64,000 nucleotides of DNA from Gemmatimonadota bacterium (GCA_039586815.1 JBDHJR010000004.1:95212-159211), one strand, 5' to 3'; counted from the first letter of the stretch, positions 4,734 through 23,724 are shown. The notes: generated by a model from the letters alone, not told the origin. Translations and numbers: made by a program.

Positions 4734-4768
4734 GCTCGGGCCGGCATGACTGGTAGGGACGGCGAAGG

Positions 4769-6654: not shown

Positions 6655-6655
6655 G

Positions 6656-7090
6656 ATGCGTGACTTGGCGGGCGCTCGAATCCTCGTTTTCAGGGTGGTC
6701 GATCGGCTGTGTGGGGCGGACGTGGACGCTGTCCGTGAGATCCTCCCCAGGCAGGCCGCCACCCGCGTCCCCGGTGCTGACGAGGCGGTGGCCGGCCTCA
6801 TCAACATCCGGGGCCAGCTCGTGCCGTTGGTCGACGGGAGTCGTGCGCTAGGCCACAGCACCGACGGCGGGGGGCAGACCATAGTGCTCCTCGAGGTTAG
6901 CGAGCAGTTGGTCGGGTTCACGGTCGACGAAGTGATCGACCTGGTGTCCGTCGCCGCCGACGATCTCTCCGACCGCGGTGACTTGCCGGGCGTCGATCCC
7001 CGTCTGGTGCGGGCAGTGGGCCGGCGCGGGGACGACTCGTTTGTTCTGCTCGATCTCGAAGCGTTGCTGACCCCAATCCTCAGCGTGTAG
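6656..7090 (+). CDS. cheW: chemotaxis coupling protein CheW (copy 1)
   Basis: CheW-like fold motifs: ILVFRVVDRLCGADVDAVREIL, LINIRGQLVPLVD, VGFTVDEVIDLV. ATG 6656 lies 1 nt after the rluD stop. Confidence 0.85.
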   Translation: MRDLAGARILVFRVVDRLCGADVDAVREILPRQAATRVPGADEAVAGLINIRGQLVPLVDGSRALGHSTDGGGQTIVLLEVSEQLVGFTVDEVIDLVSVAADDLSDRGDLPGVDPRLVRAVGRRGDDSFVLLDLEALLTPILSV

Positions 7091-7099
7091 GGAGGCTGT

Positions 7100-7462
7100 G
7101 TGAGCCATACGGTACTCGTGTGCGATGACGCGATCTTCATGCGGACGATGATCAGCGACATCCTGACGCAAGCAGGCTACGAGGTGGTGGGCGAGGCGGA
7201 GACCGGCACGCAGGCGGTCGAAAAGTACAAGCAGCTGAAGCCCGACCTGGTCACGATGGATATCGTGATGCCCGACATGGGTGGCATCGACGCCGTGCGA
7301 GAGATCGTAAGCGGCGATCCCAGCGCGCGCGTCCTGATGTGCAGCGCCATGGGCCAGCAGGCGCTCGTCGTCGAGGCGATCCAGGCAGGTGCCAAGGACT
7401 TCGTCGTGAAGCCGTTCCAGCCGTCCCGCGTGCTCGAGGCGGTCCAGCGGGTGCTCGGCTAG
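7100..7462 (+). CDS. cheY: single-domain response regulator CheY
   Basis: Receiver residues are all present: DD (VLVCDD), phospho-Asp in VTMDIVMPDMGG, CSAMG, VKPF. GTG start after GGGAGG. Confidence 0.9.
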   Translation: MSHTVLVCDDAIFMRTMISDILTQAGYEVVGEAETGTQAVEKYKQLKPDLVTMDIVMPDMGGIDAVREIVSGDPSARVLMCSAMGQQALVVEAIQAGAKDFVVKPFQPSRVLEAVQRVLG

Positions 7463-7464
7463 GC

Positions 7465-9333: not shown

Positions 9334-9341
9334 GAGCAAGC

Positions 9342-9959
9342 ATGGTAGACCTGCGAGATCTCGAAGAACTACAGCTGGACGCCCTGAGGGAAGTCGCCAA
9401 CATCGGCGCGGGGCACGCTGCGACGGCGCTCTCGCAGCTCACCGACCGTCGCATCATGATCAGCGTGCCGCAGATCTACGTAGAGCGCCTCGAGCAGGTG
9501 CCGGATATCCTGGGTGACGCTGAAGACGTCGTTGCCGCCGTGCTGATGCACATGCTGGGGGACCTGACGGGGCGAATGCTGCTCGTCGTGCCGCAGTCGA
9601 ACGCGATGCTGCTGTGCGACCTCCTGCTGCGGCGCGAGCCGGAAACCACGAGCGAGTTCGGCGATCTCGAGCAGTCCAGCCTCAAGGAGGCGGGCAACAT
9701 CCTGGGAGGTGCGTACATGAACGCCCTCTCGGACTTCATGGGGATGATGCTGCTTCCCTCCGTCCCGAGCCTGGCCGTGGATCTCTCGGGCGCGGTGCTG
9801 AGCACCACGCACCTGAGCTTTGGACGGGACAAGGACGTGGTGTTCTGCGTCGAGACCAACTTCCACTTCGCTGAAGCGGATGCGATGCTGCGCGGCCATT
9901 TCCTGCTGCTGCCCGACGTCGCCTCGTTGAAGACCATCTTCGACGCCATCCGTATCTGA
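9342..9959 (+). CDS. cheC: CheC-family CheY-P phosphatase
   Basis: Two copies of the CheC active-site helix: LREVANIGAGHAATALSQL and LKEAGNILGGAYMNALSDF. 205 aa. Confidence 0.8.
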   Translation: MVDLRDLEELQLDALREVANIGAGHAATALSQLTDRRIMISVPQIYVERLEQVPDILGDAEDVVAAVLMHMLGDLTGRMLLVVPQSNAMLLCDLLLRREPETTSEFGDLEQSSLKEAGNILGGAYMNALSDFMGMMLLPSVPSLAVDLSGAVLSTTHLSFGRDKDVVFCVETNFHFAEADAMLRGHFLLLPDVASLKTIFDAIRI

Positions 9960-9963
9960 CTCG

Positions 9964-12642
9964 ATGTCCACGGGCGCGCTGCCGGAGAAGGACCGCGACG
10001 TCCTACGGTCGTTCGCCCGCCGGATCGACCCCTCTGACGCCGGTGCCCACAACAACCTTGGGGTGCTGTACCATCGCAAAGGGTTGGTGGAGGACGCGAT
10101 CGCGGAGTTCCAGCGGGCGCTCGAGCTGGATCCGAAGATGCTCACCGCCCGGCGCAACCTGGAGATCGCCTACAAGGCGTCGGGGTTCTACGATCGTCGC
10201 ATAGCGGAGCTCAGCGAGCGGCTGCGCGCGGATCCCGAGGACGGCAACGCCCGCTGGGAGCTGGCCCGCGCGTATGCATCGCTGGGGCAGTACGACGAAG
10301 CGGCGCGCGAGTTCCACGCACTGATCGAACGCGATCCCAACAGCGTGGCCGCGATGATCCAGCTGGGACTCGCCGAGAAGAGCCGCGGCAAGCTGGAAGA
10401 GGCGGTCGAGTGGCTGGAGCGGGCCCGCACCCTGGATGCCGAGAGCAGCGTCATATACCAGTATCTCGGCGAGCTGCAGTACAACCGGGGGCGCAACACG
10501 GAGGCCCTCGAGGCGCTGCAGCAAGCCGCCCATCTCAACCCCGAGAATGCCGACGCCCACTACCAGATGGCGTTCGTGCTGGGCGATCTGGGGCGGCACG
10601 AAGAGGCGCGGGCCGCGACGAAGAATGCGATCGAGCTGAACCCTACGCTGGGCCGCGCGCAGGCCAACCTGACGCTCGAGTCGATCGCCGAGCAGCGAGA
10701 CCGTCCCTCGGCGCCGTTCCCGGCGCAACCCGATGTAGATGAGACCCTGGCCCACTACAACCTGGGTCGGGCCTTTCGGCGGCAGGGCTACTACAACGAG
10801 GCGCTCAAGGAGTACCGGCTCGCGCTGGAGCGGGGTGAGGATCGCAAGCTCGTGCTTCAGGCCCTGGCCGAGGTGAACCTGCTGAAGCGCGACCACGCCG
10901 CGGCGCTGGAGCTGTACGACAAGCTGGTCGCCGAGATTGCCGACTCGCCCAGGCTGTGGAACGAGCGAGGCGTGGTGCTGCACCAGCTCGGTCGGTTCGA
11001 GGACGCCGTCGGCTCGTATCAGCGGGCGGTGCACCATGGGGCCGACTACGCCCTCGCGCGAAACAACCTGGCCATCACCCTGGCCCAGGTGGGCAGACCC
11101 GAGGACGCGGTCGAGATGCTGGGGGAGGCGCTCAGGCACGGCCCCGACCTGACCATACCGCGGCTCAACCTGGGATTGCTGCTCTACAGCCTGAGGCGGT
11201 ACCAGCTCGCGCTCCAGGCGTTCCGGCGGGTGCTGGAGCAGGACAACGCGTCGGCCGCCGCGTGGAACGGACTGGGTCTGGTGCTCACCGAGACCGAACG
11301 GGCCGAGGACGCGCGCAACGCGTTCTCGCGCGCCGTCGAGGCCGACCCGCAATCAGCAGAGGCGCACTACAACCTGAGCTTTGCGCTGTCGCGCCTCGGC
11401 GATTTCGACGGTGCGCTCAGGGCGGTCACGCGGGCGCAGACACTCGATCCCTACTACGTGCCACAGAAGTTCCGGCTCGCCATCGACCTGCAGTACGAGG
11501 ATCCGGGGATCTCGGTGGTCCCGGAGATCTCGGCCGACGTGGCGGCGGAGTTGACGAGCCAGAGCCTCAAGCTCGAGCCCGGGACGCTCGACAGCCTGTT
11601 CCGCGAGCTGGAGCGTCCGGCGCCCAAGCCCGCTGCGCCAGCCAAGCGGGGCGATCCCTTTGGCCTGGCACGGGACTACCTCAATAAGGGGCTGTTCGAG
11701 CTCGCATCCGCCGAGGCGAACCGCGCGCTGAGCCGCGGGGCCAATGAGGTGGAGGCCCAGGTGTTGCTCGGCGAGATCTTCGCCCGCCGCGGACTGCACG
11801 GCGAGTCGCTGGAGCGGTACCGGGAGGCACGGCGACTGGCGCCTGACCGGGCCGACGTGCGCCTGGCCGAGATGCGGGAGCTGCTGGCGTTGGAGCGCGG
11901 CGCGGAGGCGGTGGAAGATGCCACGGCGCTGGCGGCGGAGCGCCCCGACGACGTGGACGTGCTGGTTGTGCTGGCCCGGGCGCGGCTCGCCGCAGCCGAC
12001 CCGGGCAACGCGATGCAGGCGCTCCAGGCGGCCCGCGCGCGCGCGCCGCAGCGGGCCGACCTGCTGGAGCTGGAGGGAGACATCGCGGCGGGAATGCGCA
12101 ACTGGACCGCGGCGCGAACCGCGTACGAAGGAGCGCTGGAGCTCGACCCCCGGTTGGTGCGGGTACGCTTCGCGCTGGGCAAGGTCCACGAGGCGCGCGA
12201 AGACTGGGGGGCGGCAGAAGCATCGTACCGGGCGGCGCTCGATCAGCTGCCGACGTTCTTCGATGCCGCGGTTGCGCTTGCCGAGCTGCATCGTAGAACC
12301 GGGGCGCCGCGTGAGGCAATCGCTCTTCTGGCGGACCTGCTCACGGCCGACTCCGCCGCGCTCGACGCACTGCTGGTGCTGGGCAAGGCGCTGCTCGACG
12401 ACGGACGAGTGGAGGAAGCGCTGCACTCGTTCGACCGTATCCTGACGCACGATCCGCATCATCTGGCGGCCCTGTTCTTCTCGGGCGTCGTGTTCGCCCG
12501 TCAGCGGCGGTACCAGCAGGCAGTGGAACGGTGGGATCGGGTGATCGATCTGGACCCGTCCGGCCCCTACGCGCAGCGGGCGCGCAAGCACGCGCGCACG
12601 GCGCTGGACCTGCGGCACATCTTCAAGTCCGAGGTGGCGTAG
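9964..12642 (+). CDS. large tetratricopeptide-repeat (TPR) protein, 892 aa
   Basis: TPR consensus (A..Y..AL.L.P....A..NLG) repeats end to end. No TM segment, HAMP or MCP signature seen. Confidence 0.8.
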   Translation: MSTGALPEKDRDVLRSFARRIDPSDAGAHNNLGVLYHRKGLVEDAIAEFQRALELDPKMLTARRNLEIAYKASGFYDRRIAELSERLRADPEDGNARWELARAYASLGQYDEAAREFHALIERDPNSVAAMIQLGLAEKSRGKLEEAVEWLERARTLDAESSVIYQYLGELQYNRGRNTEALEALQQAAHLNPENADAHYQMAFVLGDLGRHEEARAATKNAIELNPTLGRAQANLTLESIAEQRDRPSAPFPAQPDVDETLAHYNLGRAFRRQGYYNEALKEYRLALERGEDRKLVLQALAEVNLLKRDHAAALELYDKLVAEIADSPRLWNERGVVLHQLGRFEDAVGSYQRAVHHGADYALARNNLAITLAQVGRPEDAVEMLGEALRHGPDLTIPRLNLGLLLYSLRRYQLALQAFRRVLEQDNASAAAWNGLGLVLTETERAEDARNAFSRAVEADPQSAEAHYNLSFALSRLGDFDGALRAVTRAQTLDPYYVPQKFRLAIDLQYEDPGISVVPEISADVAAELTSQSLKLEPGTLDSLFRELERPAPKPAAPAKRGDPFGLARDYLNKGLFELASAEANRALSRGANEVEAQVLLGEIFARRGLHGESLERYREARRLAPDRADVRLAEMRELLALERGAEAVEDATALAAERPDDVDVLVVLARARLAAADPGNAMQALQAARARAPQRADLLELEGDIAAGMRNWTAARTAYEGALELDPRLVRVRFALGKVHEAREDWGAAEASYRAALDQLPTFFDAAVALAELHRRTGAPREAIALLADLLTADSAALDALLVLGKALLDDGRVEEALHSFDRILTHDPHHLAALFFSGVVFARQRRYQQAVERWDRVIDLDPSGPYAQRARKHARTALDLRHIFKSEVA

Positions 12643-12645
12643 ACC

Positions 12646-13797
12646 ATGGCTATCGAGGGGCCACTCAAGGAACTGGGGATCCACGATGTCTTCCAGTTGC
12701 TCGACCTGAGCCGCAAGACGGGTGTGCTCACGGTGGCGTCGAAGCTGCGGCACAACCAGGGGACGGTCTACTTCGACGCCGGCGCCGTGGTGTACGCGGA
12801 GATCCAGAGCAACCCACATCCGTTGGGTGGCATGCTGGTTCGGGCCGGGAAGATCACCGAGGCGGATCTGCACCGGGCCCGCGACATGCAGGAGGGGGGT
12901 GACGGGCGGCTCCTGGGTGAGGTCCTGCTGGACATCGGCGCCGTCAATCAGCGGGAGCTCGAGCGCCAGGTGAGGTTCCAGGTCGAGGAAGTGATCTTCG
13001 AGGTCATGAACTGGCGCGAGGGCTACTTCTCGTTCGTGGAGGGTCCGCTGCAGGAAGTCCCGGCCGATGCCACCGTGCGAATCACCACGGAATCGGTGCT
13101 CATGGAGGGCGCACGCCGGATCGACGAGTGGTCGCGCATCGAATCCAAGATCCCGCACAGCGGAGTGGTGCCCGCGCTCGCACCCGCTGTGGGCGGTGAG
13201 AGCGGCGGACTCGACCTGCTTCCGTTCGAGTGGGAGGTGCTGGCGACGATCGACGGCGAGCGGGACCTGCGTGCCATCGCCAGCGCCGTGGCCCGCTCCG
13301 AGTTCGACGTGGCCAAGACCATATTCGGACTCGAGAGCGCGGGGCTCCTGACCGTGGCCGATAGGGGAGCGGCTGCGGCGTCCGCGGAGCTGTCCGGCGA
13401 CGTGCGGGGATGGGTGGAGCGCGCCGAGGCGGCCCTCGAGGGTGGTGACCTTGCCACGGCACGCGAGCTTGCCGAGACGATGCGGGAGCGGTTCCCGCAC
13501 GAGGCCGCAGTCCACTTCGTGCTGGGACGCGTGAGCCTCGCGGGCGGCGACGCCGGGTCGGCCGAGGAGTGCCTGCGGCGCGCACTCAGGGTGGATCCCT
13601 TGTTCGGAGTGGCGCACCGCCTGCTGGGAGACGCCCTGGCGCTGCAGGGGCGCTTCGGCGAGGCGGTTGAGTGGTGGCAGCGCTGGCTCAAGATCGGCGA
13701 GCAGGAGGGCGGAAGCGCCGAGGAGATACAACAGGTGCGCGACGCTGTCGCCGCCGCCCAGAGCCTCGGCACCTACCTGAGAGGGTCACGTGGCTAG
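12646..13797 (+). CDS. DUF4388 (PATAN-type) domain protein with C-terminal TPR
   Basis: N-terminus MAIEGPLKELGIHDVFQLLDLSRKTGVLTV...GTVYFDAGAVVYA is the DUF4388/PATAN signature. A middle small helical domain and C-terminal TPRs follow. Confidence 0.8.
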   Translation: MAIEGPLKELGIHDVFQLLDLSRKTGVLTVASKLRHNQGTVYFDAGAVVYAEIQSNPHPLGGMLVRAGKITEADLHRARDMQEGGDGRLLGEVLLDIGAVNQRELERQVRFQVEEVIFEVMNWREGYFSFVEGPLQEVPADATVRITTESVLMEGARRIDEWSRIESKIPHSGVVPALAPAVGGESGGLDLLPFEWEVLATIDGERDLRAIASAVARSEFDVAKTIFGLESAGLLTVADRGAAAASAELSGDVRGWVERAEAALEGGDLATARELAETMRERFPHEAAVHFVLGRVSLAGGDAGSAEECLRRALRVDPLFGVAHRLLGDALALQGRFGEAVEWWQRWLKIGEQEGGSAEEIQQVRDAVAAAQSLGTYLRGSRG

Positions 13798-14590
13798 CGA
13801 CGTCCAGGCCATGACGGCCGAGCTGGCGCGCGATCCGTCGAGCCTCGTCTTTCTGGAGCTGGGCGAGGCGCTGCGACGCGTGGGGCAGCTCGATGCGGCG
13901 AGCCGCGTTCTCGTCAACGGCCTGGAGCAGCATCCCGAGCTCGTCGAGGGCCGCGACCTGTACGCCCGCGTGCTGGTGGACAGCGGTGACTATACGCGCG
14001 CCGCTCAGGTGTGGGCCACGGTGCTGGAATTGGAGTCGAGACATCTCGGCGCGCACAAGGGGCTCGGTTTCCTGAGCTTCCGCTCCGGTGATCTGGACAG
14101 CGCGATGGAGCATCTCGAGCTGGCTCTCGCAGCCGATCCGACCGACGAGAGCGTGGTTCGCGCGCTGCGCACGGTGCGCGATGCGGCACAGGAGGCGCAG
14201 GCAGAGGCGGCGCCGCCGAGTTCGGGCGAAGACCCGCTGTTCGCCGGGCTGGAGGGCGCCGAGCAGGGATTGCTGCTGGTGGACGAACGCGGCCGGGTGC
14301 TGGGCGGGCGGTTGCTCGACGCCTCCGGCGGAGAGGTCTCGGAGATGGTGGCGGCGTACCTGGCGGGTGCCGCACAGGAGGCTGACCGTACGGCCCGCAT
14401 GCTCGGCCTGGGTGAGTGGCGCTGGATCGTGGCCGAGGGACCGGACGGAAACGTGTACGTGACGCCGCCTACGACCGAAACCCTGTTGCTCATCCTGCGC
14501 GACCAAAGCGTTCCGTCGGGCCGGCTCGCGATGCTGGCCGAGCGCGCGGGCGCGGTGGCACGAACCTGGCTCGAGGGGCAGCAGCTGTGA
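13790..14590 (+). CDS. TPR - roadblock/LC7 fusion protein
   Basis: N-terminal half is TPR (LELGEALRRVGQLDAA...). C-terminal half (LLLVDERGRVLGG...WRWIVAEGPDGNVYVTP...LLLILRDQSVPSGRLAM) looks like a roadblock/LC7 fold. GTG start overlaps the previous gene by 8 nt. Confidence 0.7.
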   Translation: MASDVQAMTAELARDPSSLVFLELGEALRRVGQLDAASRVLVNGLEQHPELVEGRDLYARVLVDSGDYTRAAQVWATVLELESRHLGAHKGLGFLSFRSGDLDSAMEHLELALAADPTDESVVRALRTVRDAAQEAQAEAAPPSSGEDPLFAGLEGAEQGLLLVDERGRVLGGRLLDASGGEVSEMVAAYLAGAAQEADRTARMLGLGEWRWIVAEGPDGNVYVTPPTTETLLLILRDQSVPSGRLAMLAERAGAVARTWLEGQQL

Positions 14591-14937
14591 CGTCGCAGTT
14601 TCGGCGAACGCTCGACAACATCACCCGGGTGCGAGGCGTGCGCGGGGCCATGCTCGTGGCCGGTGACGACGGGCTGATCGTAGCCGAGTCGCTGATGGAG
14701 GGAGTGCGCGGCAACGCGGTGGCGGCACTGGCCGCCAGCCTGCACAAGCGCTTCCGCCAGGCGATGGATGCGGGGGCCGCGGGTGCGCCCCACTTCATGC
14801 ATCTCCAGGGCGACGGCGGGACGCTCATAGTCGTACCGGCACCCGACGGCGTGCTGGTGGTGGCCGTCGGCGACCCCAACATGAACGTGGGGCTCGTGCG
14901 GCTGGAGATGCTGCGGGCAGCCGAGGGACTCGCATGA
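14587..14937 (+). CDS. roadblock/LC7-domain protein (MglB/MglC-like paralog)
   Basis: VRGVRGAMLVAGDDGLIVAES...LQGDGGTLIVVPAPDGVLVVAVGDPNMNVGLVRLEM is the classical roadblock pattern. GTG 14587 sits in a GTGA overlap; the track start 14416 lies inside the previous gene. Confidence 0.8.
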   Translation: MTSQFRRTLDNITRVRGVRGAMLVAGDDGLIVAESLMEGVRGNAVAALAASLHKRFRQAMDAGAAGAPHFMHLQGDGGTLIVVPAPDGVLVVAVGDPNMNVGLVRLEMLRAAEGLA

Positions 14938-15404
14938 CGGATACGCGAGCGGTAGAAGCATGGACGCTCGCGCCGCTGCAGCACTTCGTGGCGGAGGCCG
15001 GTGCGCGGCTCACCCTGTTGATGACGCCGGCGGGCCAGGTGTTGGCGCAGCACGGGTTCACCCGCGCGGTGGACGTGATGTCGGCAGCGGCCCTGGGGGC
15101 GGCAATAGTGGCGTCGAGCGGCGAGCTCGCCTCCATGCTGCAGCAGCGGCAGTTCTCGGCGCTCAACCACCAGGGGTCTGAGCACGGCATCTTCCTGGGG
15201 GCGTTCGACACCCCGCGCGGGCGGCTGCTCGCGCTGGTAGTTTACGGTCCGGACTCTTCGGTCGGATTGGTGCAGTTGTTCTTCGAGGAGCTCGCGATGC
15301 AGCTGGCAGCAGCGGCTCCCGCGAAAGAAGAGTCCAAGGCGGTGCTCGCCGCGGATTTCGAGCAGGAGCTCAACGAGAGTCTCGCGAACCTTTTCGGGCA
15401 GTGA
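14934..15404 (+). CDS. mglB: MglB-like roadblock GTPase-activating protein
   Basis: Roadblock core ([16 protein letters not shown]...[34 protein letters not shown]) plus an acidic C-terminal tail ending NLFGQ, as I recall for M. xanthus MglB (DNLFSE). Lies directly upstream of mglA. Confidence 0.75.
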
Positions 15405-15408
15405 CGAC

Positions 15409-16008
15409 GTGTCTCTAGTCAACTTCACCACCCGCGAGATCACCTGCAAGATCGTCTACTACGGTCCGGGACGGTCGGGCAAGACCACGAACTTGCAGTA
15501 CATCTACGGGCGCGTGCCTGACGATCGGCGCGGCCGCATGGTGTCGCTAGCCACCCAGACCGATCGCACCCTGTTCTTCGACTTCCTGCCGCTCGAGTTG
15601 GGCAGCATATCGGGGTTCACGACGCGGTTCCAGCTCTATACGGTGCCGGGACAGGTCTACTACAACGCCACCCGCAAGCTGGTGCTCCAGGGGGCGGACG
15701 GGGTGGTGTTCGTCGCGGACAGCCAGGCGAGGCAGCTCGAGGAGAACGTGGAGAGCCTGCAGAACCTGCAGGAGAACCTCCTTGCCCAGGGTGCCGACGC
15801 GCGCGGCATGCCGCTGGTGTTGCAGTACAACAAGCAGGATCTGCCGCAGGATCTCGTGCTCTCGCCAAAGGAGCTGGACGACGCGCTGAACTTCTGGAGC
15901 GTGCCCAGCTTTTCGGCGGCGGCGCTCGCCGGCACGGGTGTCTTCGAGACGCTGAAGGCCGCCTCGGAGCAGGTGCTGCGCAAACTGAGTCAGGAGGAGC
16001 CGGTGTGA
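15409..16008 (+). CDS. mglA: MglA-family Ras-like small GTPase
   Basis: Aligns by eye over its whole length with my recollection of M. xanthus MglA. Matching elements: [25 protein letters not shown] (P-loop 15463-15486), [15 protein letters not shown] (intrinsic Arg), LYTVPGQV (Thr replaces the DxxG Asp, catalytic Gln), VFVADSQ, YNKQD. GTG start. Confidence 0.9.
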
Positions 16009-17993
16009 CCGAGGAGCTGAATCCCAAGTTCAGCTTCGAGACCCTCGTGGTCGGCGCCGCGAACCGGCTCGCGGTGACTGCGGCTCGGACTGTAGCGGAG
16101 TCGCCGGGCGCTGCGTACAACCCGCTGTTCGTGTACAGCCCCACCGGGTTGGGCAAGACCCACCTCCTCATGGCGATTGGGCAGCTCGCCAAGCAGCTCG
16201 CTCCCGAGAGCCGCGTCGAGTACATCACGATCGACGAGTTCGTGGAGGCGCACCACGCCGCCGTGGCGGCGGGGCAGAGCGAGGCGCTGCGCAGCCGCTA
16301 TGCGCAGATCGACATTCTCTTGGTGGACGACGTGCAGTTCCTGACGCACCGCCGCGAGATGCAGGCCGAGCTGCTGCGAATCGTTCAGGAGCTGCAGACC
16401 GCCGGGAAGCAGGTCGTGCTCACCAGCGACAGTCCTCCCTCCGAGATCGAAGATCTGGACGAGCGCCTGTTGTCGCGCTTCGATGCGGGCCTGCTGGTGG
16501 ACATCGGCCCGCCCGACGCGGAGACGCGGCTCGCCATTCTGATGCGTCGCACGGAGGACCGCGGGGCGCAGTTTGGGGAAGGGGTGTTGGATGCAGTGGC
16601 TCGGTTCGAGGTGCCCAACGTGCGGGAGCTTCTCGGGCTGCTCAACAAGCTCGTGGCCTACCAGGCCGTGAGCGAGTCACCCATCACCCCGGCCGCCGCG
16701 CACGAGCTGCTCGCCGGGGAAGTGCGGACCCAGGCCCCGATGACGACCGGGCCGGCGCCGGCGCTCACCGCCATGGGTGAGCCGGTCGCGGAGCCCGAGG
16801 AGGAGCGACCCGACGAGTTCGCCGATTTCCTATCCGACGTGGCGCACACGGTGGAGGAGCAGGTGGAGGCGTGGCGCTCCAAGCTGGGCGAGGCGATCAC
16901 GCGCTGGGAGGCGGAGGGATTCCGCACCGGACGCCTCGAACGGCTGTTGGATCAGGATGTGCCGGTCTCCCTAGACCGGGTGCTGAAGCAGTTCGAGAAG
17001 GACGTCGAGCAGCTCCGCTCCATGCAGGCCACGATGGCCAAGCTCGATCCCGAGCGCGCCGAGGACCCCGTGTTCAACGATCCGGACAGCCTGGACGAGG
17101 TTGACCACCTGGTGCAGACCGTGCTGCACGAGGTGGGACCGCCCCCGGGCCCGTCTGCCGCGTGGGAGCTGGCGTCATTCGTGGACGGCGAGGCCAACAA
17201 GGTCGCGCACAACTCGGCGCAGGAGGTGGTGACTCAGCCGGGCGTGCGCTACAACCCGCTGGTGCTTGCGGGACCCACCGGCGTGGGCAAGACGCATCTG
17301 CTGCACGCGATCGGCCACGAGCTCGCCGCCCGGCCCGAAGCCGTAGTCGCGTGCCTGTCGGCGCAGCAGCTCATCGACGAGCTGGTGCAGGCAATCGACG
17401 GCGAGCGCATCGATCTGTGGCGCACTCGCTATCGCCGCGCGACCGCGTTCCTGCTGGACGATGCGCACCTGCTCGCGGGCAAGGAGCGCACCCAGGAGGA
17501 GGTGTTCCACCTCTTCAACGAGCTGTTCGACGCGCAGCGCCAGCTGGTGTTCACCACGGCCAAGGCACCGCGCGAAGTCGAGGGCCTGGACGAGCGCCTG
17601 GTGTCGCGGTTGGAGGGCGGGCTGGTGGTCAACATGGAGAGTCCCGACCGTGAGCTCCGCCGCGCCATCGTGGTTCGCAAGCTCCAAGAGGACGTCGGTG
17701 CAGCGGATGACGAGTTGGCCGACTACCTGGCCGCGCGTCCCGCCGACTCGATTCGATCCGTGATCGGCCTGCTGCAGCGTGTCATGGTGGCGGCCGATGC
17801 TCAGGGAGCCGCTCCCAGCGCCGCCCTGGCGCGCGAGATGGTGGAAGGCGCAGCGCCGGCACGTCCTCGCGTGTCGGCTCCGGTGCGCACGAGCGGCATC
17901 ATGATCTCGCCTTCCGGCGGCGTGAAGAGCCGTGAGAAGATGGTCTGGTTCTGGCCCGACCCGGCCCAGCGCGTGATCGAGGAGATGACCTAG
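16005..17993 (+). CDS. tandem DnaA-type AAA+ ATPase (two domain-III modules, no domain I or IV)
   Basis: Module 1: [18 protein letters not shown], Walker A SPTGLGKT (16137-16160), Walker [37 protein letters not shown]. Module 2: Walker A GPTGVGKT (17271-17294), [20 protein letters not shown]. An acidic linker of about 170 aa joins them. No HTH or DnaA-signature C-terminus. Confidence 0.8.
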
Positions 17994-19609
17994 TGGCCAT
18001 CAAGGGCAGCCTCAAGGAGGCGTCGCTCGCCGACGTGCTGCAGCTCCTGGCGCTCGGTCAGAAGACCGGCTGTCTCTCGGTCACCGACCGCACCAATCTG
18101 GGGCACATCTACTTCAACCGCGGACAGATCACCTACGCGTCGCTCGTGAACCGCCGCGACCGGATCGGTGACATCCTGGTCAAGAACGGCAAGATCACAC
18201 AGGAGCAACTCCACGATGCCATCGATCAGCAGATTCGGCAGCGCGACAAGCGGGTCGGAGAGCTGCTGGTCGAGTCGGGCGCCATCGCGCGCGAGGAGCT
18301 GGAGCATTACATGCGGCTCCAGATCGAGGAGGCGGTCTTCTTCCTGTTCACCTGGACACGGGGTTCGTTCAACTTCGAGGCCGACGTCCACCCAGAGGAG
18401 CAGGACTTCCTCGTGGCAATCAAGCCGGAGTCCCTGGTGTTGGAGGGGGCGCGCCGTGTGGATGAGTGGAGCCTCATCGAGAAGAAGATCCCGTCGCTGG
18501 ACATCATCTTCACGGTCGACCAGCGCCGCATTGCCGCCTCACAGGTGAGCCTCACCGAGCAGCAGCAGCGATTGGTGCCGCTGCTCGACGGCTCCCGCGA
18601 CTTCACCAGGCTCGTCGAGGACTCAGGGCTGGTGGAGTTCGATGTGGGCAAGGCGCTGTACGGGCTGATCACCGCGGGGTTCGTGCACCGCACTGGGCGG
18701 AGTGAGCCGCAGGCGGCCGACGTCGGCGACGCCCGCGTGGACGAGCATCGCAATCTCGGGGTCGCATTCTACAAGACGGGGATGTTGGACGAGGCGACCC
18801 GCGAGTTCCGCCGGGTGGTGGACCTGCGGCCCTCCGACGGGAGTGCCTACTTCCACCTCGGGCTCATTGCGGTGAAGCAGGCCCACTGGCAGGAAGCTGC
18901 GGGGCATTTCAATCAGGCCGCCGAGCGGGGTGGCATGCGGCCTGCAGTGCTGCACAACCTGGCGCTGGCCTACGAGAAGGGCGGCCGTCTCGAAGAGGCT
19001 GAGGGCACGTATGCGGAGGCGGCGAGCAAGGCGCGCCGCGACACGCAAATCATGACGAGCTGGGGCATAGTCGCGTTGCAGCGCGGCGACCACGAAGTCG
19101 CCGCCGGCCGACTCGATCGGGCGCGCGAGGTTGGGGGAGACGAGATCCCCAGCGCCATGTGGTTCTGGGCGCGCTCCCTCTCGGCGGCGGCGCTCGAGGA
19201 GGTCGAGGAGGCCGAGGCGCTGCTGCGCGAAGGTCTCGAGGCCCATCCCGAGAGCGTGGTGCTGCGCAATAACCGAGCGGTGCTGCAGGAGCTCCTGGGA
19301 GACCTCGATGGGGCCGAGGAGACGCTGCGCGCGGCGCTGTCCGAGGACCCCTCCGTGCCACAGCTCTCCAAGAACCTGGGTGATCTCCACTATAGGGGAG
19401 GGCGCTACGACGAGGCCTGGGACGCCTACCAGCGCGCGGTCAAGCTGCAGCCCGAGCTGGGTGACGACGTCTACTTCAAGCTCGGCAACATCGCCTACAA
19501 GCGCCTCGACCGGGAATCGGCCGCCGAACTGTGGCGCAAGGCACTGGAGTTGAATCCCGGTCACGAGCTCGCCCGCACGAATCTCGACACCGTGAGCGCC
19601 CTTACGTGA
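17993..19609 (+). CDS. DUF4388 (PATAN-type) domain protein with long C-terminal TPR array
   Basis: MAIKGSLKEASLADVLQLLALGQKTGCLSV...GHIYFNRGQITYA is paralogous to the N-terminus of the 12646 gene. Same middle domain (LEGARRVDEWSLIEKKIP), then TPRs. GTG overlaps the previous TAG by 1 nt. Confidence 0.8.
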   Translation: MAIKGSLKEASLADVLQLLALGQKTGCLSVTDRTNLGHIYFNRGQITYASLVNRRDRIGDILVKNGKITQEQLHDAIDQQIRQRDKRVGELLVESGAIAREELEHYMRLQIEEAVFFLFTWTRGSFNFEADVHPEEQDFLVAIKPESLVLEGARRVDEWSLIEKKIPSLDIIFTVDQRRIAASQVSLTEQQQRLVPLLDGSRDFTRLVEDSGLVEFDVGKALYGLITAGFVHRTGRSEPQAADVGDARVDEHRNLGVAFYKTGMLDEATREFRRVVDLRPSDGSAYFHLGLIAVKQAHWQEAAGHFNQAAERGGMRPAVLHNLALAYEKGGRLEEAEGTYAEAASKARRDTQIMTSWGIVALQRGDHEVAAGRLDRAREVGGDEIPSAMWFWARSLSAAALEEVEEAEALLREGLEAHPESVVLRNNRAVLQELLGDLDGAEETLRAALSEDPSVPQLSKNLGDLHYRGGRYDEAWDAYQRAVKLQPELGDDVYFKLGNIAYKRLDRESAAELWRKALELNPGHELARTNLDTVSALT

Positions 19610-20421
19610 AGTCCACCGAGCGCGATCCCGCGCTGGTCGCGTTACTCGGGAAGATCGGCGAGGTACGTGGCTTCTGCGGCAACGCGTACAAAGAAGGATG
19701 TCTTCGCCGGCGCATCGCCGTGCGGATGCGTGCGCGGGGGGTGCACACCTACGAGCAGTACGCTCAGGTGCTCGACGGCGACACGGACGAATACGACCGC
19801 CTGCTCGACACCATTACCATCAATGTCACCAAGTTCTATCGCAACCGGGACACGTGGCAGCGGATCGCGGATGCGGTGCTACCCGAGCTGTGGCAGGCAC
19901 GTGAGGGCCGGGTGCGCTGCTGGTCGGCCGGCTGCGCGTCGGGCGAGGAGCCCTACACCCTGGCCGTCCTGTTCCTGGAGCTGGAGCGCTCGTTTCCGGG
20001 TGTACCGGGCGGGCGCAGCCGCATCGACGCGACCGACCTCGACCGCAAGAGCCTCGCGCACGCGGAAGAGGGTGTCTACCGGCCGGCGGCATTCGACGAG
20101 ATGCCGCCGGCGCTGGTGTCGCGCTACGTGCTGGGCGACGACTCTCGTCAGTTGGCGCCCGAGGTCAAGGGTATGGTGCGCTTCCACCAGCACGACCTCT
20201 TGCGCGATGCGCCGCCTCATCCTCCATACGACCTCATCATGTGTCGCAACGTGGTGATCTACTTCGACCGCTCCACGCAGGAGCGGCTCTTCCGCGGCTT
20301 CGTGGATGCGCTGCGGCCGGGCGGGTACTTCGTGCTGGGCAAGGTCGAGACACTGGTGGGTGAAGTGCGCCAGGAGCTCGAGCTCGTGGACGCCAGAGAG
20401 CGCATCTACCGACTGCCATGA
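19606..20421 (+). CDS. cheR: chemotaxis protein methyltransferase CheR
   Basis: TINVTKFYRN, RCWSAGCASGEEPYTLAV (SAM site), IMCRNVVIYFD. GTG 19606 in a GTGA overlap. Confidence 0.88.
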   Translation: MKSTERDPALVALLGKIGEVRGFCGNAYKEGCLRRRIAVRMRARGVHTYEQYAQVLDGDTDEYDRLLDTITINVTKFYRNRDTWQRIADAVLPELWQAREGRVRCWSAGCASGEEPYTLAVLFLELERSFPGVPGGRSRIDATDLDRKSLAHAEEGVYRPAAFDEMPPALVSRYVLGDDSRQLAPEVKGMVRFHQHDLLRDAPPHPPYDLIMCRNVVIYFDRSTQERLFRGFVDALRPGGYFVLGKVETLVGEVRQELELVDARERIYRLP

Positions 20422-20912
20422 GGAACACGAACGACCAGACCGTCATCGGAATGGGCGAGTACGCCGTGATCGACGGCAGCGGCACGCTGACGGCGCTCGG
20501 GCTCGGGAGCTGTGTTGCCGTGATCCTGCACGATCCCGACGGCCAGGTTGGAGCGATGGCCCATGTGCTGCTCCCGGCGCAGTCGCTCGCGCGACGGCGC
20601 AACAATCCCGCGCGCGCGGCCGACACCGCCGTACCGCTGCTGGTGGAGCAGATGAGGCAGCGGGGTGCGGTGCTGGAGCGGACGCGGGCCCGTCTCGTGG
20701 GAGGCAGCACGATGTTCGGCGACCTGCTGCCCACCGGGAGCGTGCACATCGGTGAGCGCAACGTGCTGGCGTGCCGCACGGCACTGCGGCAGGCTGGGGT
20801 TCCCATCGTAGCCGAGGCGGTGGGTGGGCGCGCGGGGCGCTCGGTCTTCTTCGACGTGGGGGAGGGGAAGGTCAGAGTGCGGGTGGTGGGCAAGGTGGAG
20901 ATCGAGCTGTGA
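20418..20912 (+). CDS. cheD: chemoreceptor glutamine deamidase CheD
   Basis: [14 protein letters not shown]...[21 protein letters not shown] motifs; 164 aa. Confidence 0.88.
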
Positions 20913-21976
20913 GCCGAGTGGCGTCGGTACTGGTGGCAGACGACAGCGCTTTCATGCGGCGTGTCCTGTCGGACGTGATCGACGCCTCTGACCGGTATCG
21001 CGTCGTGGCGATCGCGCGCGACGGGCTCGACGCCGCAGAGAAGGTGCACCGCTTCGAGCCAGACGTCGTGACGATGGACATCGAGATGCCGCGGCTCGAC
21101 GGGCTCGGCGCCATCGGCTACATCATGAGCGAGTCGCCACGACCGATCGTCGTGGTCAGCGCCTATGCCGGACCCGGCACGGAAGCGGCGATTCGCGCAC
21201 TCGAGCTCGGCGCGGTGGAGGTGGTCGCGAAGCCGCGGGGCTCGGATCGCGAGGCGTTGGAGGCCCTGGGGCCGTCGCTCCTGGCGGCGCTGGACGCGGC
21301 GATGGCGGCGGAGTTGGATCGCGTGCCAATCCTGGCCCGCGCGCCGGTTCCCGTGGTGGTGCCGCCCCCGGTAGCGTGGGTGAAGGGGAGGGCGCGGTAC
21401 GCCATTGCCATTGCCGCGAGCACTGGCGGTCCGAGGGCGCTGGCAGAGGTGATCCCGCGACTGCAGGCGGGCAGCGACGCGGCGGTGCTCGTGGTGCAGC
21501 ACATGCCGGCAAACTTCACGCGGAGCCTGGCGGAGCGTCTCAATGCGTCGAGTATGGTACGAGTGGTAGAGGCGGACGACGGCGCGCCGCTGCTGGCGGA
21601 CACGGCCTACGTAGCTCCCGGGGATTATCACATGCGCGTCGAGTCGGGCGTGGACGGCCCCCAGCTGCAGTTGCGCCAGGACGAGCCCGTTTGGGGGGTG
21701 CGGCCGGCCGCGGATCCCCTGTTCAGGTCGGTAGCCCGGCTGTTCGGGGCGCAGTCGCTCGGCGTGGTGCTGACGGGAATGGGGCGCGACGGTGCAGAGG
21801 GATTGAGGGCAATCCGCGACGCCGGTGGCTTCGGGATGGCGCAGGACGAGGCGTCGGCGGTGATCTATGGGATGCCGCAAGCCGCGGTTGCCGCGGGAGG
21901 AGCCGAAGAGGTGGTGCCGCTCGACGCTATCGCATCACGCATCGAGGCGCGGCTCGAGGGGCGCGTAGGGGCATGA
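20909..21976 (+). CDS. cheB: protein-glutamate methylesterase CheB (receiver + esterase)
   Basis: Receiver [12 protein letters not shown]...[12 protein letters not shown]. Esterase triad context [29 protein letters not shown] 20909 in a GTGA overlap. Confidence 0.9.
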
Positions 21977-22401
21977 AGGGCTATCTTGTGGTTCAGGCCG
22001 GCGGAGTGCGCTACGGTGTGGCGCTGGCAGACGTGCGGCAGGTCATCGAGTTGCCGCGGGCGTACGCCGCACCAAGCACGCATCGCGCCGTGCTGGGCCT
22101 GATTCGAGCGGGTGGGCGGCTCATGCCGCTGGTGGACCTCGGCGCGCTGGTGGAAGTGGAGCGCGACCCCGCCCCAGAGGCGATGTTGGGGGTCGTTACG
22201 CGATGCGCGGAGCGGGTAGTGGCGCTGGCGGTGGACGATGCAGAGGCTGTGGTGCACGAAGACCCCGGGCCCCTGCCCGATGGATGGGATCTTCCCTGGG
22301 CCTCCGGGGTGGCCCGGGAGGGAGAGAATCTGATCCCGGTTCTAGACATGGACGTTCTGGCTGAGCGGCTCGTTTCCGTGAGCGCAACCGAGGAGAGATG
22401 A
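21973..22401 (+). CDS. cheW: CheW (copy 2)
   Basis: [23 protein letters not shown]...[18 protein letters not shown]...[15 protein letters not shown] 21973 in an ATGA overlap. Confidence 0.8.
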
Positions 22402-22874
22402 GTACGGGAGACGAAGTCCAGCTCGTCACCTTTCGTGTCGGTGGACACGACTTCGCGGTGAACATCTTCCAGGTGGAGCGTATCCTGCGTTACCAGGATC
22501 CCGCTCCCCTGCCAAAGGCTCCCGCCTATCTCGAGGGTGTGGTGCGGTACGGCGACGCGGTCGTGCCACTGATGGATCTGCGCAAACGCGTCGAGGCGGA
22601 TGCGCCGGTGCGCGACGACACCCGCATCATGATCCTCGAGCTCGAGGGCGAGAAGATTGGTGTCGTGGTGGATGCCGTGCAGGAGGTGCTGCGCGTGGGG
22701 GCGGAGCGGATCAGCCCTCCGTCATCGCTCGTGCGGGGGCTGGCGGCGAAGTACATCAGCGGTGTGGTCGCGGACGGCGATCGTACGTTCGTCGTGCTCC
22801 ACGCCGGCAAACTCCTCTCGTCGAAGGAGCGGCTGGAGCTCGAGAAGCTGCAAGTGGAGGCGTCTCATGAGTGA
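22398..22874 (+). CDS. cheW: CheW (copy 3)
   Basis: QLVTFRVGGHDFAVNIFQVERIL...EGVVRYGDAVVPLMDLRKR...IGVVVDAVQEVLRV. Confidence 0.85.
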   Translation: MSTGDEVQLVTFRVGGHDFAVNIFQVERILRYQDPAPLPKAPAYLEGVVRYGDAVVPLMDLRKRVEADAPVRDDTRIMILELEGEKIGVVVDAVQEVLRVGAERISPPSSLVRGLAAKYISGVVADGDRTFVVLHAGKLLSSKERLELEKLQVEASHE

Positions 22875-23724
22875 CTCCCTCATATCGTCGCTGCGCGGCG
22901 AATACGACTCCATCGCCCGGCGTCTCGGCTCAGATCCCGGCGGCGAGGAGCGCGAAGACCTCAAGGCCGAGATCATCACTCTGTTCAAGACCGTCGATCA
23001 GACGATTGCCGATCTCTCCGAGCTCAAGGAGAGCATCCGCGTGCTGGTGGACAAGTACAAGGAGCTGTCCCAGAGCGAGAGCGGCGACCAGGCGCCGCAG
23101 TTCACGGGCGCGGTTCCCGTCATGCAGGATCACCTGGGCGCCACCACGTTCATCGAGAAGGGCTGGAGCCTCATATCGCTGGGTGACTACGGCGGCGCGA
23201 TCCAGTCGCTCAACAAGGCGCTGCAGCTCTCCCCCGGCGACGTGCAGGCGCACTCGCTGCTGGGTTGGGCGCAGATGTTGAGTGAAGACTACGACTCGGC
23301 CATGGGGACCTTCCAGATGGTACTGGCGAAGGAGCCGGCGAATTCGCTGGCCCGCATCAACGTCGGGTACATCTGTCTCAAGAAGGAGATCTTCGGCGAG
23401 GCGATCGAGCACCTGTCCAAGGCGATCAGGCTCGACAACGACAAGAAGGCCACGCTCTACGCGCACTTCTATCTCGGGCTCGTGTACCTGGAGCGCGAGA
23501 TGTACGAGGACGCCCAGACGTTCTTCGGAAAGACCCTGAAACTCGGCCCGAACCTGATCGAAGCCTACTACGAGCTGGGGCGCTCGTACTGGCATGCAGG
23601 GGACCGCGATGCGGCCCAGCGGGCATGGGAGGAGGGGTATCAGGCCAACAAGTTCAATCCGTGGGGCAAGCGCTGCAAGGAGACGCTGGACCTGGTCGCG
23701 CAGGGCCAGGAGCCGCCACGCTAG
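22867..23724 (+). CDS. coiled-coil + TPR protein
   Basis: N-terminal about 70 aa is heptad-rich, then TPRs (AIQSLNKALQLSPGDVQAHSLLGWA, AIEHLSKAIRLDND...). ATG 22867 overlaps cheW by 8 nt. Confidence 0.75.
   Translation: MSDSLISSLRGEYDSIARRLGSDPGGEEREDLKAEIITLFKTVDQTIADLSELKESIRVLVDKYKELSQSESGDQAPQFTGAVPVMQDHLGATTFIEKGWSLISLGDYGGAIQSLNKALQLSPGDVQAHSLLGWAQMLSEDYDSAMGTFQMVLAKEPANSLARINVGYICLKKEIFGEAIEHLSKAIRLDNDKKATLYAHFYLGLVYLEREMYEDAQTFFGKTLKLGPNLIEAYYELGRSYWHAGDRDAAQRAWEEGYQANKFNPWGKRCKETLDLVAQGQEPPR

Follow-up and report, generated by a model that had tools for sequence, protein, structure and literature searches.

What is a gene with the motif series of the replication initiator DnaA doing between mglA and a gene for a PATAN-domain protein? 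This question is raised by a 64,000-nucleotide (nt) stretch of DNA from a Gemmatimonadota bacterium (GCA_039586815.1, JBDHJR010000004.1:95212-159211), referred to throughout as the window, and by the following gene within it:

16005..17993, + strand: tandem DnaA-domain-III ATPase gene, GTG start, TAG stop included; 662 amino acids (aa), Bac_DnaA twice

An initial annotation, made from the sequence alone, described the product as a covalent pseudo-dimer of DnaA-fold ATPases recruited to a motility or polarity pathway, perhaps as a scaffold or timer. Our analyses have shown that both halves of the protein are initiator-clade (DnaA domain III) AAA+ modules, and that the protein has neither the origin-recognition domain (IV) nor the helicase-recruiting domain (I) of DnaA. 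The gene is best explained as a member of a conserved, non-replicative DnaA paralog family present in both Gemmatimonadota classes. The evidence best supports a reading of the locus in which a DnaA-fold tandem ATPase has been recruited to a polarity or motility pathway, and a scaffold or timer function is what we infer for the protein. Based on sequence comparisons and gene context, our best reading is that it would be part of a polarity/pilus signalling module, as an ATP switch or a scaffold with no role in replication.

Identity of the two modules

The protein was compared with profile libraries both whole and module by module. Pfam Bac_DnaA (PF00308) matched the 662-aa protein in two stretches (E 7e-102), as the initial annotation had expected. 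Taken alone, module 1 (residues 1-239) scored 188.1 bits against Bac_DnaA (E 1.7e-55) and 45.2 bits against IstB; the corresponding scores of module 2 (residues 379-618) were 156.0 bits (E 1.2e-45) and 36.8 bits. The top NCBIfam match of each module was the DnaA model TIGR00362, with 268.7 bits for module 1 and 227.6 bits for module 2. The Hda model scored far below this (86.6 and 92.3 bits), and the IS21 helper model reached 56.2 and 49.7 bits against a cut-off of 200. The choice between the DnaA clade and IstB or a generic AAA family, on which the initial annotation had staked its assignment, falls to DnaA on the profile scores of both modules, and assignments to IstB, generic AAA or STAND proteins were ruled out by these scores.

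Over 233 aa, the two modules share 36% identity (E 7e-42). Domain III of B. subtilis DnaA (PDB 8bv3) gives a gap-free alignment with module 1 (E 3e-53), whose identity to DnaA domain III is about 42-50%. In a Foldseek search, the best structural neighbour of the AlphaFold2 (AF2) model was 8bv3_A, with a TM score of 0.94, a root-mean-square deviation (rmsd) of 1.7 Å and 41% identity. The alignment of both modules is also gap-free across the initiator-specific helical insertion of DnaA, an insertion that favours spirals over closed rings in the structures of initiators such as DnaA and ORC. In a neighbour-joining tree of 105 domain III sequences, canonical DnaA formed one group and the family sequences clustered mostly by module rather than by protein, which indicates that the duplication is old. 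The deep branching of this tree was unstable, and the low-GC members P0164 and P0166 were placed elsewhere. Mean identity within the family was 41% for module 1 and 39% for module 2, versus 58% among DnaA domain III sequences.

Relatives of the protein are numerous. Among 5.8 billion proteins searched there were more than 120 that are full-length (642-670 aa) and 57-100% identical, and a scan of 1.84 billion cluster representatives extended the full-length relatives down to about 33% identity. Their named sources are Gemmatimonadales, Gemmatimonadaceae, Gemmatimonas and Longimicrobiales. The Longimicrobiales, which belong to another class of Gemmatimonadota, make up the second large branch of the family, so that it is found in both classes. 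One contig binned as 'Acidimicrobiia' (L015, CAXMUQ010000073.1) carries a whole Gemmatimonadota-type cluster with 50-80% protein identity and is probably mis-binned. An identical 662-aa protein is also encoded in NCBI assembly GCA_039587265.1 (contig JBDHIT010000004.1).

Absence of the replication domains and of a replication context

The initial annotation's claim that domains I and IV are lacking was borne out. No match to DnaA_N (PF11638) or Bac_DnaA_C (PF08299) was found in the 662-aa protein with Pfam at E<=0.01, and the same library recovered DnaA_N (53.4 bits), Bac_DnaA and Bac_DnaA_C (83.9 bits) in a canonical Gemmatimonadota DnaA (L050) used as a positive control. The N-terminus of the tandem protein lies only 4 residues ahead of the domain III motif NPKFSF. 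DnaA boxes (TTATCCACA, at most one mismatch) occur 4 times in the 64 kb, scattered, versus 2.45 expected; there is no enrichment, in agreement with the earlier observation that no DnaA-box cluster lies near the gene. A nearby replication origin was rejected, the DnaA-box scan being at background. The dnaA-dnaN pair was found at L050, in a different Gemmatimonadota genome from that of the window, and since the phylum has this ordinary locus, the tandem ATPase gene is an additional paralog. It is not adjoined by dnaN; its neighbours are mglA and a PATAN-TPR gene.

Source records from JGI, and some from NCBI, nevertheless name these proteins 'chromosomal replication initiator protein DnaA' (proteins P0002-P0120 and P0289-P0406). 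The whole protein scores 493 bits against TIGR00362, for which the cut-off is 343.9, and each module alone stays under it. Both partial matches cover profile positions of about 102-336 of 437, and together they (268.7 + 227.6 bits) add up past the cut-off, which explains the name. Such systematic misannotation may lead origin prediction and the counting of dnaA genes astray in Gemmatimonadota genomes.

The DnaA label, the 493-bit score and weak IstB and PADLOC matches are what would be expected if the gene were nothing special, that is, a real dnaA that was mis-called or fused, a duplicate in decay, or a helper ATPase of a defence system or insertion sequence (IS). We give this explanation hardly any chance. 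Hundreds of orthologues are intact, full-length and constant in length; the modules fall singly under the TIGR00362 cut-off, domains I and IV are absent and the phylum has a true dnaA-dnaN locus; and the gene keeps a fixed chromosomal position in a conserved operon, unlike a mobile or defence island. Membership in a defence system was also rejected on its own terms, as PADLOC gave weak P-loop matches with no stretch passing the threshold alone, and the chromosomal position is fixed.

Anatomy of the protein

The elements of the protein, read from the 5' end of the gene, are as follows:

16017..16724, +: module 1, residues 5-240, AAA+ core and lid (K51, D108/D109, D142, R154/R158, R207)
16020-16055, +: opening motif of module 1, by motif match
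16137..16163, +: Walker A of module 1, SPTGLGKTH (K51)
16317-16340, +: Walker B of module 1, LLVDDVQF (D108/D109)
16416-16430, +: sensor-1 of module 1, VLTSD (D142)
16464..16505, +: box VII of module 1 (R158, the equivalent of the E. coli R285 arginine finger)
16617-16643, +: sensor-2 of module 1, NVRELLGLL (R207)
16725..16808, +: Pro/Glu-rich linker of variable length and sequence, residues 241-268, the only part of the inter-module segment predicted to be disordered (predicted local distance difference test, pLDDT, <50 over 241-271; variability from the alignment)
16809..17138, +: family-specific helical domain, residues 269-378 (from conservation and AF2)
17139..17849, +: module 2, residues 379-615, AAA+ core and lid (K429, D485/D486, R531/R535, R584)
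17271..17297, +: Walker A of module 2, GPTGVGKTH (K429)
17448-17471, +: Walker B of module 2, FLLDDAHL (D485/D486)
17595..17630, +: box VII of module 2 (R535, the equivalent of the E. coli R285 arginine finger)
17748-17774, +: sensor-2 of module 2, SIRSVIGLL (R584)
17850..17927, +: mostly disordered tail with a conserved VRTSG patch (627-631), residues 616-641 (pLDDT <50 over 616-645)
17928..17984, +: conserved C-terminal peptide S642-E660, ending 2 residues short of the C-terminus

All 10 peptide motifs listed by the initial annotation were found in the protein. Its Walker A coordinates were right at their starts but three nucleotides short at their ends, which lie at 16163 (not 16160) and 17297 (not 17294). 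Residues were placed by aligning E. coli K-12 DnaA with both modules, taking E. coli K178, D235/D236, R281, R334 and D269 to be the Walker A, Walker B, box VII, sensor-2 and sensor-1 residues, respectively:

E. coli K178, Walker A: K51 in module 1, K429 in module 2
E. coli D235/D236, Walker B: D108/D109 in module 1, D485/D486 in module 2
E. coli R281, box VII: R154 in module 1, R531 in module 2
E. coli R285, arginine finger: R158 in module 1, R535 in module 2
E. coli R334, sensor-2: R207 in module 1, R584 in module 2
E. coli D269, sensor-1: D142 in module 1, A519 in module 2
E. coli V211/R245, H/B motifs for single-stranded DNA (ssDNA): H84/E118 in module 1, V461/R495 in module 2

The ssDNA-binding role of V211 and R245 (H/B motifs) and the arginine-finger role of R285 in E. 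coli DnaA are taken from PMC10325909.

The segment between the modules was initially described as an acidic linker of about 170 aa. It is acidic (net charge -18), but it is 138 aa long (residues 241-378) and mostly a folded domain rather than a simple linker. This middle domain carries a strongly conserved pattern (DEFxDFLSDV…W…RW..EGYRT.RLE.LL…DPD…PPPGPS), and its profile matches 369 of the 416 proteins collected. Predicted alone with AF2 (110 aa), it is helical, with a pLDDT of 89.8 and a predicted TM score (pTM) of 0.74. No Pfam match and no PDB sequence match (best E 0.05) were found for it, and the best Foldseek E value was 2.5. In one 1248-aa protein from an unrelated gene context (P0267; L086 10001-13747), eight tandem copies of the middle helical unit precede a single DnaA domain III.

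The C-terminal peptide, which the initial annotation had missed, follows the pattern S-x-E-K-x-V-W-x-W-P…R-V-I-E-E. E644, K645, V647, W648, W650, R656 and E659 are invariant in an unambiguous alignment of 21 close sequences (A1), and the peptide is retained in Longimicrobiales, in long-tailed variants and in a shortened variant at L023. A regular expression (regex) for the motif matched 254 of 321 family proteins of at least 550 aa, and in 241 of these 254 the match, whose last position is the first Glu/Asp of the closing acidic pair, ended 3 residues from the C-terminus. A constant distance to the free C-terminus is a property of peptides read by TPR or PDZ-type domains, and by analogy the C-terminal peptide of this family may be read in a similar way.

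Division of labour between the modules

Conservation was followed in A1 and in two further alignments, A2 (45 diverse full-length sequences) and A3 (19 sequences, the Longimicrobiales set). In A2, the Walker A lysine is kept in 45/45 sequences for K51 and 44/45 for K429, the first Walker B aspartate in 45/45 (module 1) and 44/45 (module 2), and the sensor-2 arginine in 43/45 (module 1) and 41/45 (module 2). The arginine finger of module 2, R535, is kept in 21/21 sequences of A1, 40/45 of A2 and 18/19 of A3. For the finger of module 1, R158, these counts are 14/21, 25/45 and 18/19, with replacement by Gly, His, Leu and others in 20 of the 45 sequences of A2. Among Longimicrobiales-type module 2 sequences (n=18), the Walker A lysine is lost in 17 and the Walker B pair and the sensor-2 lid are lost as well, and the box VII arginines are retained (R531 in 18/18, R535 in 17/18) together with the surrounding RLRSRFEGGL. 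The B-motif arginine at the R495 position is kept in 21/21 (A1), 30/45 (A2) and 18/19 (A3).

The simplest reading of this pattern is that module 1 would be the engine, and that module 2 would mainly lend its finger to the ATP site of another module. Precedents for such donation are Hda, inactive clamp-loader subunits and inactive ORC subunits, all of which supply fingers to the ATP sites of their partners. For intramolecular pairing of the modules, the sense of the term 'pseudo-dimer' in the initial annotation, arginine-finger conservation is the sole support, and an indirect one. The AF2 model of the whole protein (45 sequences; mean pLDDT 86, pTM 0.46) is confident for the modules and leaves their mutual arrangement undefined.

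A natural 393-aa variant at L023 (9992-11173) consists of module 1, with its two arginines intact, the middle domain and the C-terminal motif, and lacks module 2; its gene overlaps the PATAN-TPR gene by 17 nt. The family provides a natural series for comparing the division of labour in tandem AAA+ proteins, from two active modules, through a module 2 reduced to a finger-only pseudo-ATPase, to the absence of module 2.

The same residues bear on another possibility, namely that the protein forms a DnaA-like open helical homopolymer in which the modules are equivalent protomers of an ATP-dependent filament, serving as a polar or cytoskeletal scaffold. Both modules carry the gap-free, spiral-favouring initiator insertion, the window protein and most Gemmatimonadales-type members have two intact ATP sites, the module 1 finger is kept in Longimicrobiales and in the single-module L023 protein, and the eightfold middle unit of P0267 suggests a spacer or scaffold role. 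Every finger would be needed in such a filament, yet that of module 1 is replaced in 20/45, and the Longimicrobiales module 2 has no ATP site. We therefore regard a filament as unlikely, and favour the division into an engine and a finger donor.

Gene context and the PATAN-TPR partner

The tandem ATPase gene lies within a set of co-directional signalling genes, of which the most relevant are:

6656..23724, +: co-directional cluster (Pfam assignments and gene calls)
12646-13797: upstream PATAN-TPR gene (NF053729 32.3 bits, under the cut-off of 38)
14934..15404, +: mglB-like Roadblock gene, 156 aa (E 3.6e-9 to M. xanthus MglB, PDB 6izw_B; weak Robl_LC7)
15409..16008, +: mglA, 199 aa (E 2.3e-73 to M. 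xanthus MglA, PDB 6hjh)
17993..19609, +: PATAN(DUF4388)-TPR partner gene, 538 aa (DUF4388 E 4.8e-38, plus TPR)

The order of the cluster is cheW, cheY, cheA, cheC, TPR (892 aa), PATAN-TPR, TPR-Roadblock, Roadblock, mglB, mglA, tandem ATPase, PATAN-TPR, cheR, cheD, cheB, cheW, cheW and TPR (285 aa), with five TPR proteins encoded in all. The neighbours named by the initial annotation, mglA upstream and a PATAN gene downstream, were confirmed, the PATAN gene encoding DUF4388/PATAN plus TPR, and the junction sequences bear out the overlaps that it had described. The GTG start of the ATPase gene shares GTGA with the mglA stop (...GTGTGACC), and its TAG stop overlaps the GTG of the PATAN gene (TAGTG; ACCTAGTGGCC). 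Overlaps of this kind are not confined to the three genes that the initial annotation had noted. A near-continuous chain of 1-8-nt start/stop overlaps runs along the cluster (13790/13797, 14587/14590, 14934/14937, 16005/16008, 17993, 19606/19609, 20418/20421, 20909/20912, 21973/21976, 22398/22401 and 22867/22874), which suggests translational coupling for many of its genes.

Gene order was identical in 23/23 tandem-type loci from species-representative genomes and the same in two further metagenomic lineages. In 26/26 Gemmatimonadales-type loci, mglA and the ATPase gene share 4 or 1 nt at their junction or have a gap of at most 8 nt between them, and in about 17 of 22 a 1-nt overlap (TGATG, TAATG or TAGTG) joins the end of the ATPase gene to the start of PATAN-TPR. 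The coupling to mglA stressed by the initial annotation thus holds in all 26 Gemmatimonadales-type loci but not family-wide, as no mglA lies near the gene in the Longimicrobiales loci L081 and L089 or in three other deep lineages (P0228, L082/L083 and L090). At L081 and L089 the order is rluD, ATPase, PATAN-TPR, and neither mglA nor any che gene lies within 10 kb; the TGATG junction between ATPase and PATAN-TPR genes recurs at L081. Of the three other deep lineages, one has the order ATPase, PATAN-TPR, TPR, another the order che genes, TPR, PATAN, ATPase, and another a TPR protein followed by the ATPase. PATAN-TPR is the most constant neighbour, being present at about 30 of 33 family loci and usually downstream. 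Random occurrence with respect to mglA and che genes, which the initial annotation had named as a reason to abandon its proposal, was not what we found, and PATAN-TPR or TPR genes recur across lineages. The commonest partner of the ATPase is PATAN-TPR (or TPR), not MglA.

Several further features of these loci were observed. The che set of the cluster (cheA, three cheW, cheY, cheC, cheR, cheD and cheB) is complete for signalling and adaptation. At L089 (11948-14460), an IS element with a DDE_Tnp_1 transposase splits the PATAN-TPR partner into a 55-aa stub and a 250-aa TPR remnant. At L090 (3765-4667), a low-GC 'Gemmatimonadetes' metagenome-assembled genome (MAG) has two genes for bactofilins some 5 kb upstream of the tandem ATPase; bactofilins of Myxococcus act together with SofG, a GTPase resembling MglA. 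The cluster in the window is flanked on one side by ileS, a dksA-like gene, lspA and rluD (1446-6654), and on the other (23742-48000) by a Peptidase_MA_2 gene and then rsmH-ftsL-ftsI-mur (the dcw cluster). In Longimicrobiales (L081, L085 and L089 compared), the ATPase and PATAN-TPR pair sits after yggS-divIVA-ileS-rluD.

These positions invite the suggestion of a replication or cell-cycle regulator, which in the manner of Hda would dock on the AAA+ domain of the true DnaA, cap DnaA oligomers or trigger DnaA-ATP hydrolysis through the module 2 finger, and so couple initiation to polarity, division or motility. The cluster lies beside dcw, or beside divIVA in Longimicrobiales. The modules are nearer to DnaA proper than to Hda (268.7 and 227.6 versus 86.6 and 92.3 bits), and module 2 has retained counterparts of E. 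coli R227 and L290, which we take to be DnaA-DnaA interaction sites, as well as that of the R285 arginine finger. Nevertheless, a regex search found no Hda-type N-terminal beta-clamp-binding motif, the gene is not near dnaA, dnaN or DnaA boxes, and it is co-translated with PATAN-TPR and embedded in the mglBA/che cluster in most lineages. Moreover, the family evolves faster than DnaA (41% and 39% versus 58% identity), which argues against a shared, constrained interface with it. An Hda-like regulator is in our view rather improbable, and signalling through the PATAN-TPR partner is preferred.

Links to cyclic di-GMP and type IV pili

The PATAN-TPR partner carries a candidate sensor for cyclic di-GMP (c-di-GMP):

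18161..18322, +: two tandem MshEN-type 24-residue motifs of the partner, R57-Q80 and R87-Q110 (NF053729; in the PATAN helical insertion)

NCBIfam NF053729, a model for an MshE-related c-di-GMP-binding motif, scored 45.9 bits with the partner in the window against a cut-off of 38, and was also passed by the partners at L081 (47.6 bits) and L023 (52.1 bits), that is, at 3/3 loci tested. Both motifs of the partner follow the MshEN pattern, with one deviation at a hydrophobic position in the first; the 24-residue c-di-GMP motif pattern was defined in PMC5013675. A second connection comes from a rare, unrelated lineage (8 clusters) in which MshEN is fused directly to two Bac_DnaA modules, again without domains I and IV. 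At L087, such MshEN-fused tandem genes lie between genes for a prepilin peptidase and a PilB-like ATPase. The full order there (1738-16490) is prepilin peptidase, MshEN with two DnaA-III (921 aa), MshEN protein, lone DnaA-III (246 aa), MshEN-DnaA-III-coiled coil-DnaA-III (1876 aa), TonB_C protein and PilB-like MshEN-T2SSE ATPase. Tandem DnaA-III ATPases are thus tied to MshEN-type modules and pilus-related partners in two ways, and this is our chief ground for favouring a pilus or polarity output.

PATAN domains have been connected with pili in other bacteria. PixE of Synechocystis uses its PATAN domain to bind both PilC and PilB1, the ATPase for pilus extension (bioRxiv 10.1101/2021.06.11.447907), and the same authors noted the co-occurrence of PATAN and GspE_N. 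The binding of PATAN to the extension motor of cyanobacterial pili makes type IV pili the leading candidate for the output. Two PilB-like ATPases in our collection (P0415 and P0416, one of them from a Nitrospirae MAG) have MshEN, T2SSE and PATAN (PF14332) in one chain, so that PATAN is here fused directly to a pilus motor.

A pilus connection would also suit a nucleic-acid role, in which module 2 binds ssDNA in the manner of DnaA, for DNA uptake through type IV pili or as a nucleoid tether. E. coli V211 and R245 correspond to V461 and R495 of module 2 (their role per PMC10325909), the B-motif arginine is kept in 18/19 sequences of A3 even where module 2 has no ATP site, and the L087 relatives lie within a pilus cluster. 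On the other side, module 1 has H84 and an acidic residue, E118, at the same positions; ssDNA binding by DnaA needs an ATP-dependent oligomer, which the Longimicrobiales module 2 cannot form via its own ATP site; no comEC, dprA or comM was seen in the 20-kb neighbourhoods; and the retained residues could be structural. We give ssDNA binding by module 2 only a slim chance and retain the signalling role.

Proposed mechanism

Taken together, these analyses suggest a mechanism that we infer as a whole from conservation and context. Module 1 would be the working ATP site. Module 2 would be mainly regulatory, its R535 finger serving the ATP site of another module, in the simplest case module 1, so that the protein would act as a built-in ATPase/activator pair and hence as an ATP-dependent switch or timer. 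A TPR domain, most probably the one in the co-translated PATAN-TPR protein, would hold the ATPase by its C-terminal peptide. The resulting complex would join MglA, chemosensory and c-di-GMP inputs to a polar output, for which type IV pili are the best candidate. This combination of a paralog family, an ATP switch, a TPR tether and a polar output is our best overall explanation of the locus, and we rate the chances that it is right as even.

Several observations weigh against this mechanism. Module 2 retains the equivalents of the ssDNA H and B motifs (V461 and R495), and a nucleic-acid ligand is possible. No pilus, gliding or flagellar structural gene was found in the window, so that a pilus output is deduced indirectly and the choice of apparatus is a guess. 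The position of the gene beside dcw or divIVA could fit a role in division, polarity or budding rather than in motility. The che set has no gene for a methyl-accepting chemotaxis protein (MCP), though CheR, CheB and CheD act on receptors. The conserved synteny is largely vertical inheritance within one phylum and represents few independent events. Further, with a pTM of 0.46 the AF2 model leaves the arrangement of the modules undefined, so that the action of the module 2 finger on module 1 follows from the logic of conservation. Finally, module 1 keeps its own finger in Longimicrobiales (18/19), which fits intermolecular oligomers equally well.

A bolder form of the proposal is that this is the first DnaA-clade AAA+ protein to work outside DNA transactions, as a built-in ATPase/finger pair that serves as a timer or assembly switch in the polarity circuit of a Ras-like GTPase (MglA/MglB), docked by its peptide on a c-di-GMP-sensing PATAN-TPR protein, combining chemosensory, GTPase and c-di-GMP inputs and determining where type IV pili or the division/budding site are active. 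We consider this a genuine possibility, although one that we would sooner doubt than assert. If it is true, the MshEN-fused relatives in the pilus cluster would represent an independent realisation of it. The mechanism makes predictions that are resolved to single residues or elements, namely K51, R535, the C-terminal peptide and the MshEN motifs.

Comparison with known systems

With DnaA itself, both modules share the domain III fold, Walker A and B, the box VII arginines, the sensor-2 arginine and the helical insertion. In contrast to DnaA, the tandem ATPase lacks domains I, II and IV, and with them DnaA-box recognition and the partners of domain I; its chain holds two modules together with a novel helical domain and the C-terminal peptide; in module 1, H84 and E118 have taken the place of the residues that contact ssDNA; and the gene lies in a signalling operon, not beside dnaN or an origin.

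Hda (HdaA) is, like each half of this protein, a DnaA paralog cut down to AAA+ domain III, and its arginine finger acts on the ATP site of another protein. A similar logic of a finger serving another site is what we propose, by analogy, for module 2, especially for the putative pseudo-ATPase of Longimicrobiales. The differences are that Hda has one module only, in about 230-250 aa, and binds the clamp through an N-terminal motif, whereas the tandem ATPase has two modules in 662 aa. No QL[SP]LPL-like clamp motif was found in it by regex, the sole QxxLxF match being internal, in the core of module 2. It also scores under the TIGR03420 cut-off of 194.8 bits (171.5 for the whole protein, 86.6 and 92.3 for the modules), and its gene neighbourhood differs.

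In p97/Cdc48, NSF and ClpB, too, there are two AAA+ modules per chain, of which one may become catalytically dead and yet remain needed. The modules of these proteins are of the classic and HCLR clades and form stacked double hexamers, whereas those of the tandem ATPase are of the initiator clade and lie about 140 aa apart. A p97/Cdc48-like arrangement was rejected, as the Foldseek hits (rmsd 22-25 Å, TM 0.25-0.30) are an artefact of the presence of two AAA modules.

The L087 MshEN-fused proteins resemble the tandem ATPase in having two Bac_DnaA modules, no domains I or IV, and a link to MshEN and pilus genes. They differ in that MshEN is fused rather than carried by a neighbouring PATAN protein, in having a long coiled-coil spacer instead of the W..EGY domain, and in being rare.

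The surroundings of the ATPase gene, with MglA, MglB, PATAN, TPR and che, share these signalling parts with the MglA/MglB systems of Myxococcus and Bdellovibrio and with cyanobacterial PatA-type regulators. We know of no DnaA-type ATPase in the characterised MglA systems. The presence of PATAN-protein genes near mglA or mglB has been noted before (PMC4316618), and a DnaA-type ATPase is not mentioned there or in PMC5013675, bioRxiv 10.1101/2021.06.11.447907 and PMC11580455. Full-text literature searches for DnaA together with MglA, PATAN, MshEN or DUF4388 found no description of the architecture; similarly, the initial annotation had known of no characterised example, and none was found in these searches. 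A literature search on Gemmatimonas motility or budding gave nothing usable.

DnaA-type AAA+ domains are taken as markers of initiation by DnaA, control by Hda, helicase loading by DnaC/DnaI, or transposition by IstB. The protein described here is an initiator-clade AAA+ protein with a new architecture in a non-replicative context. If our reading is true, the uses of initiator-clade ATPases would be widened to cell polarity and motility signalling, and the family would supply a candidate energy-consuming component for the poorly understood PATAN-TPR proteins and for MglA systems outside Myxococcus.

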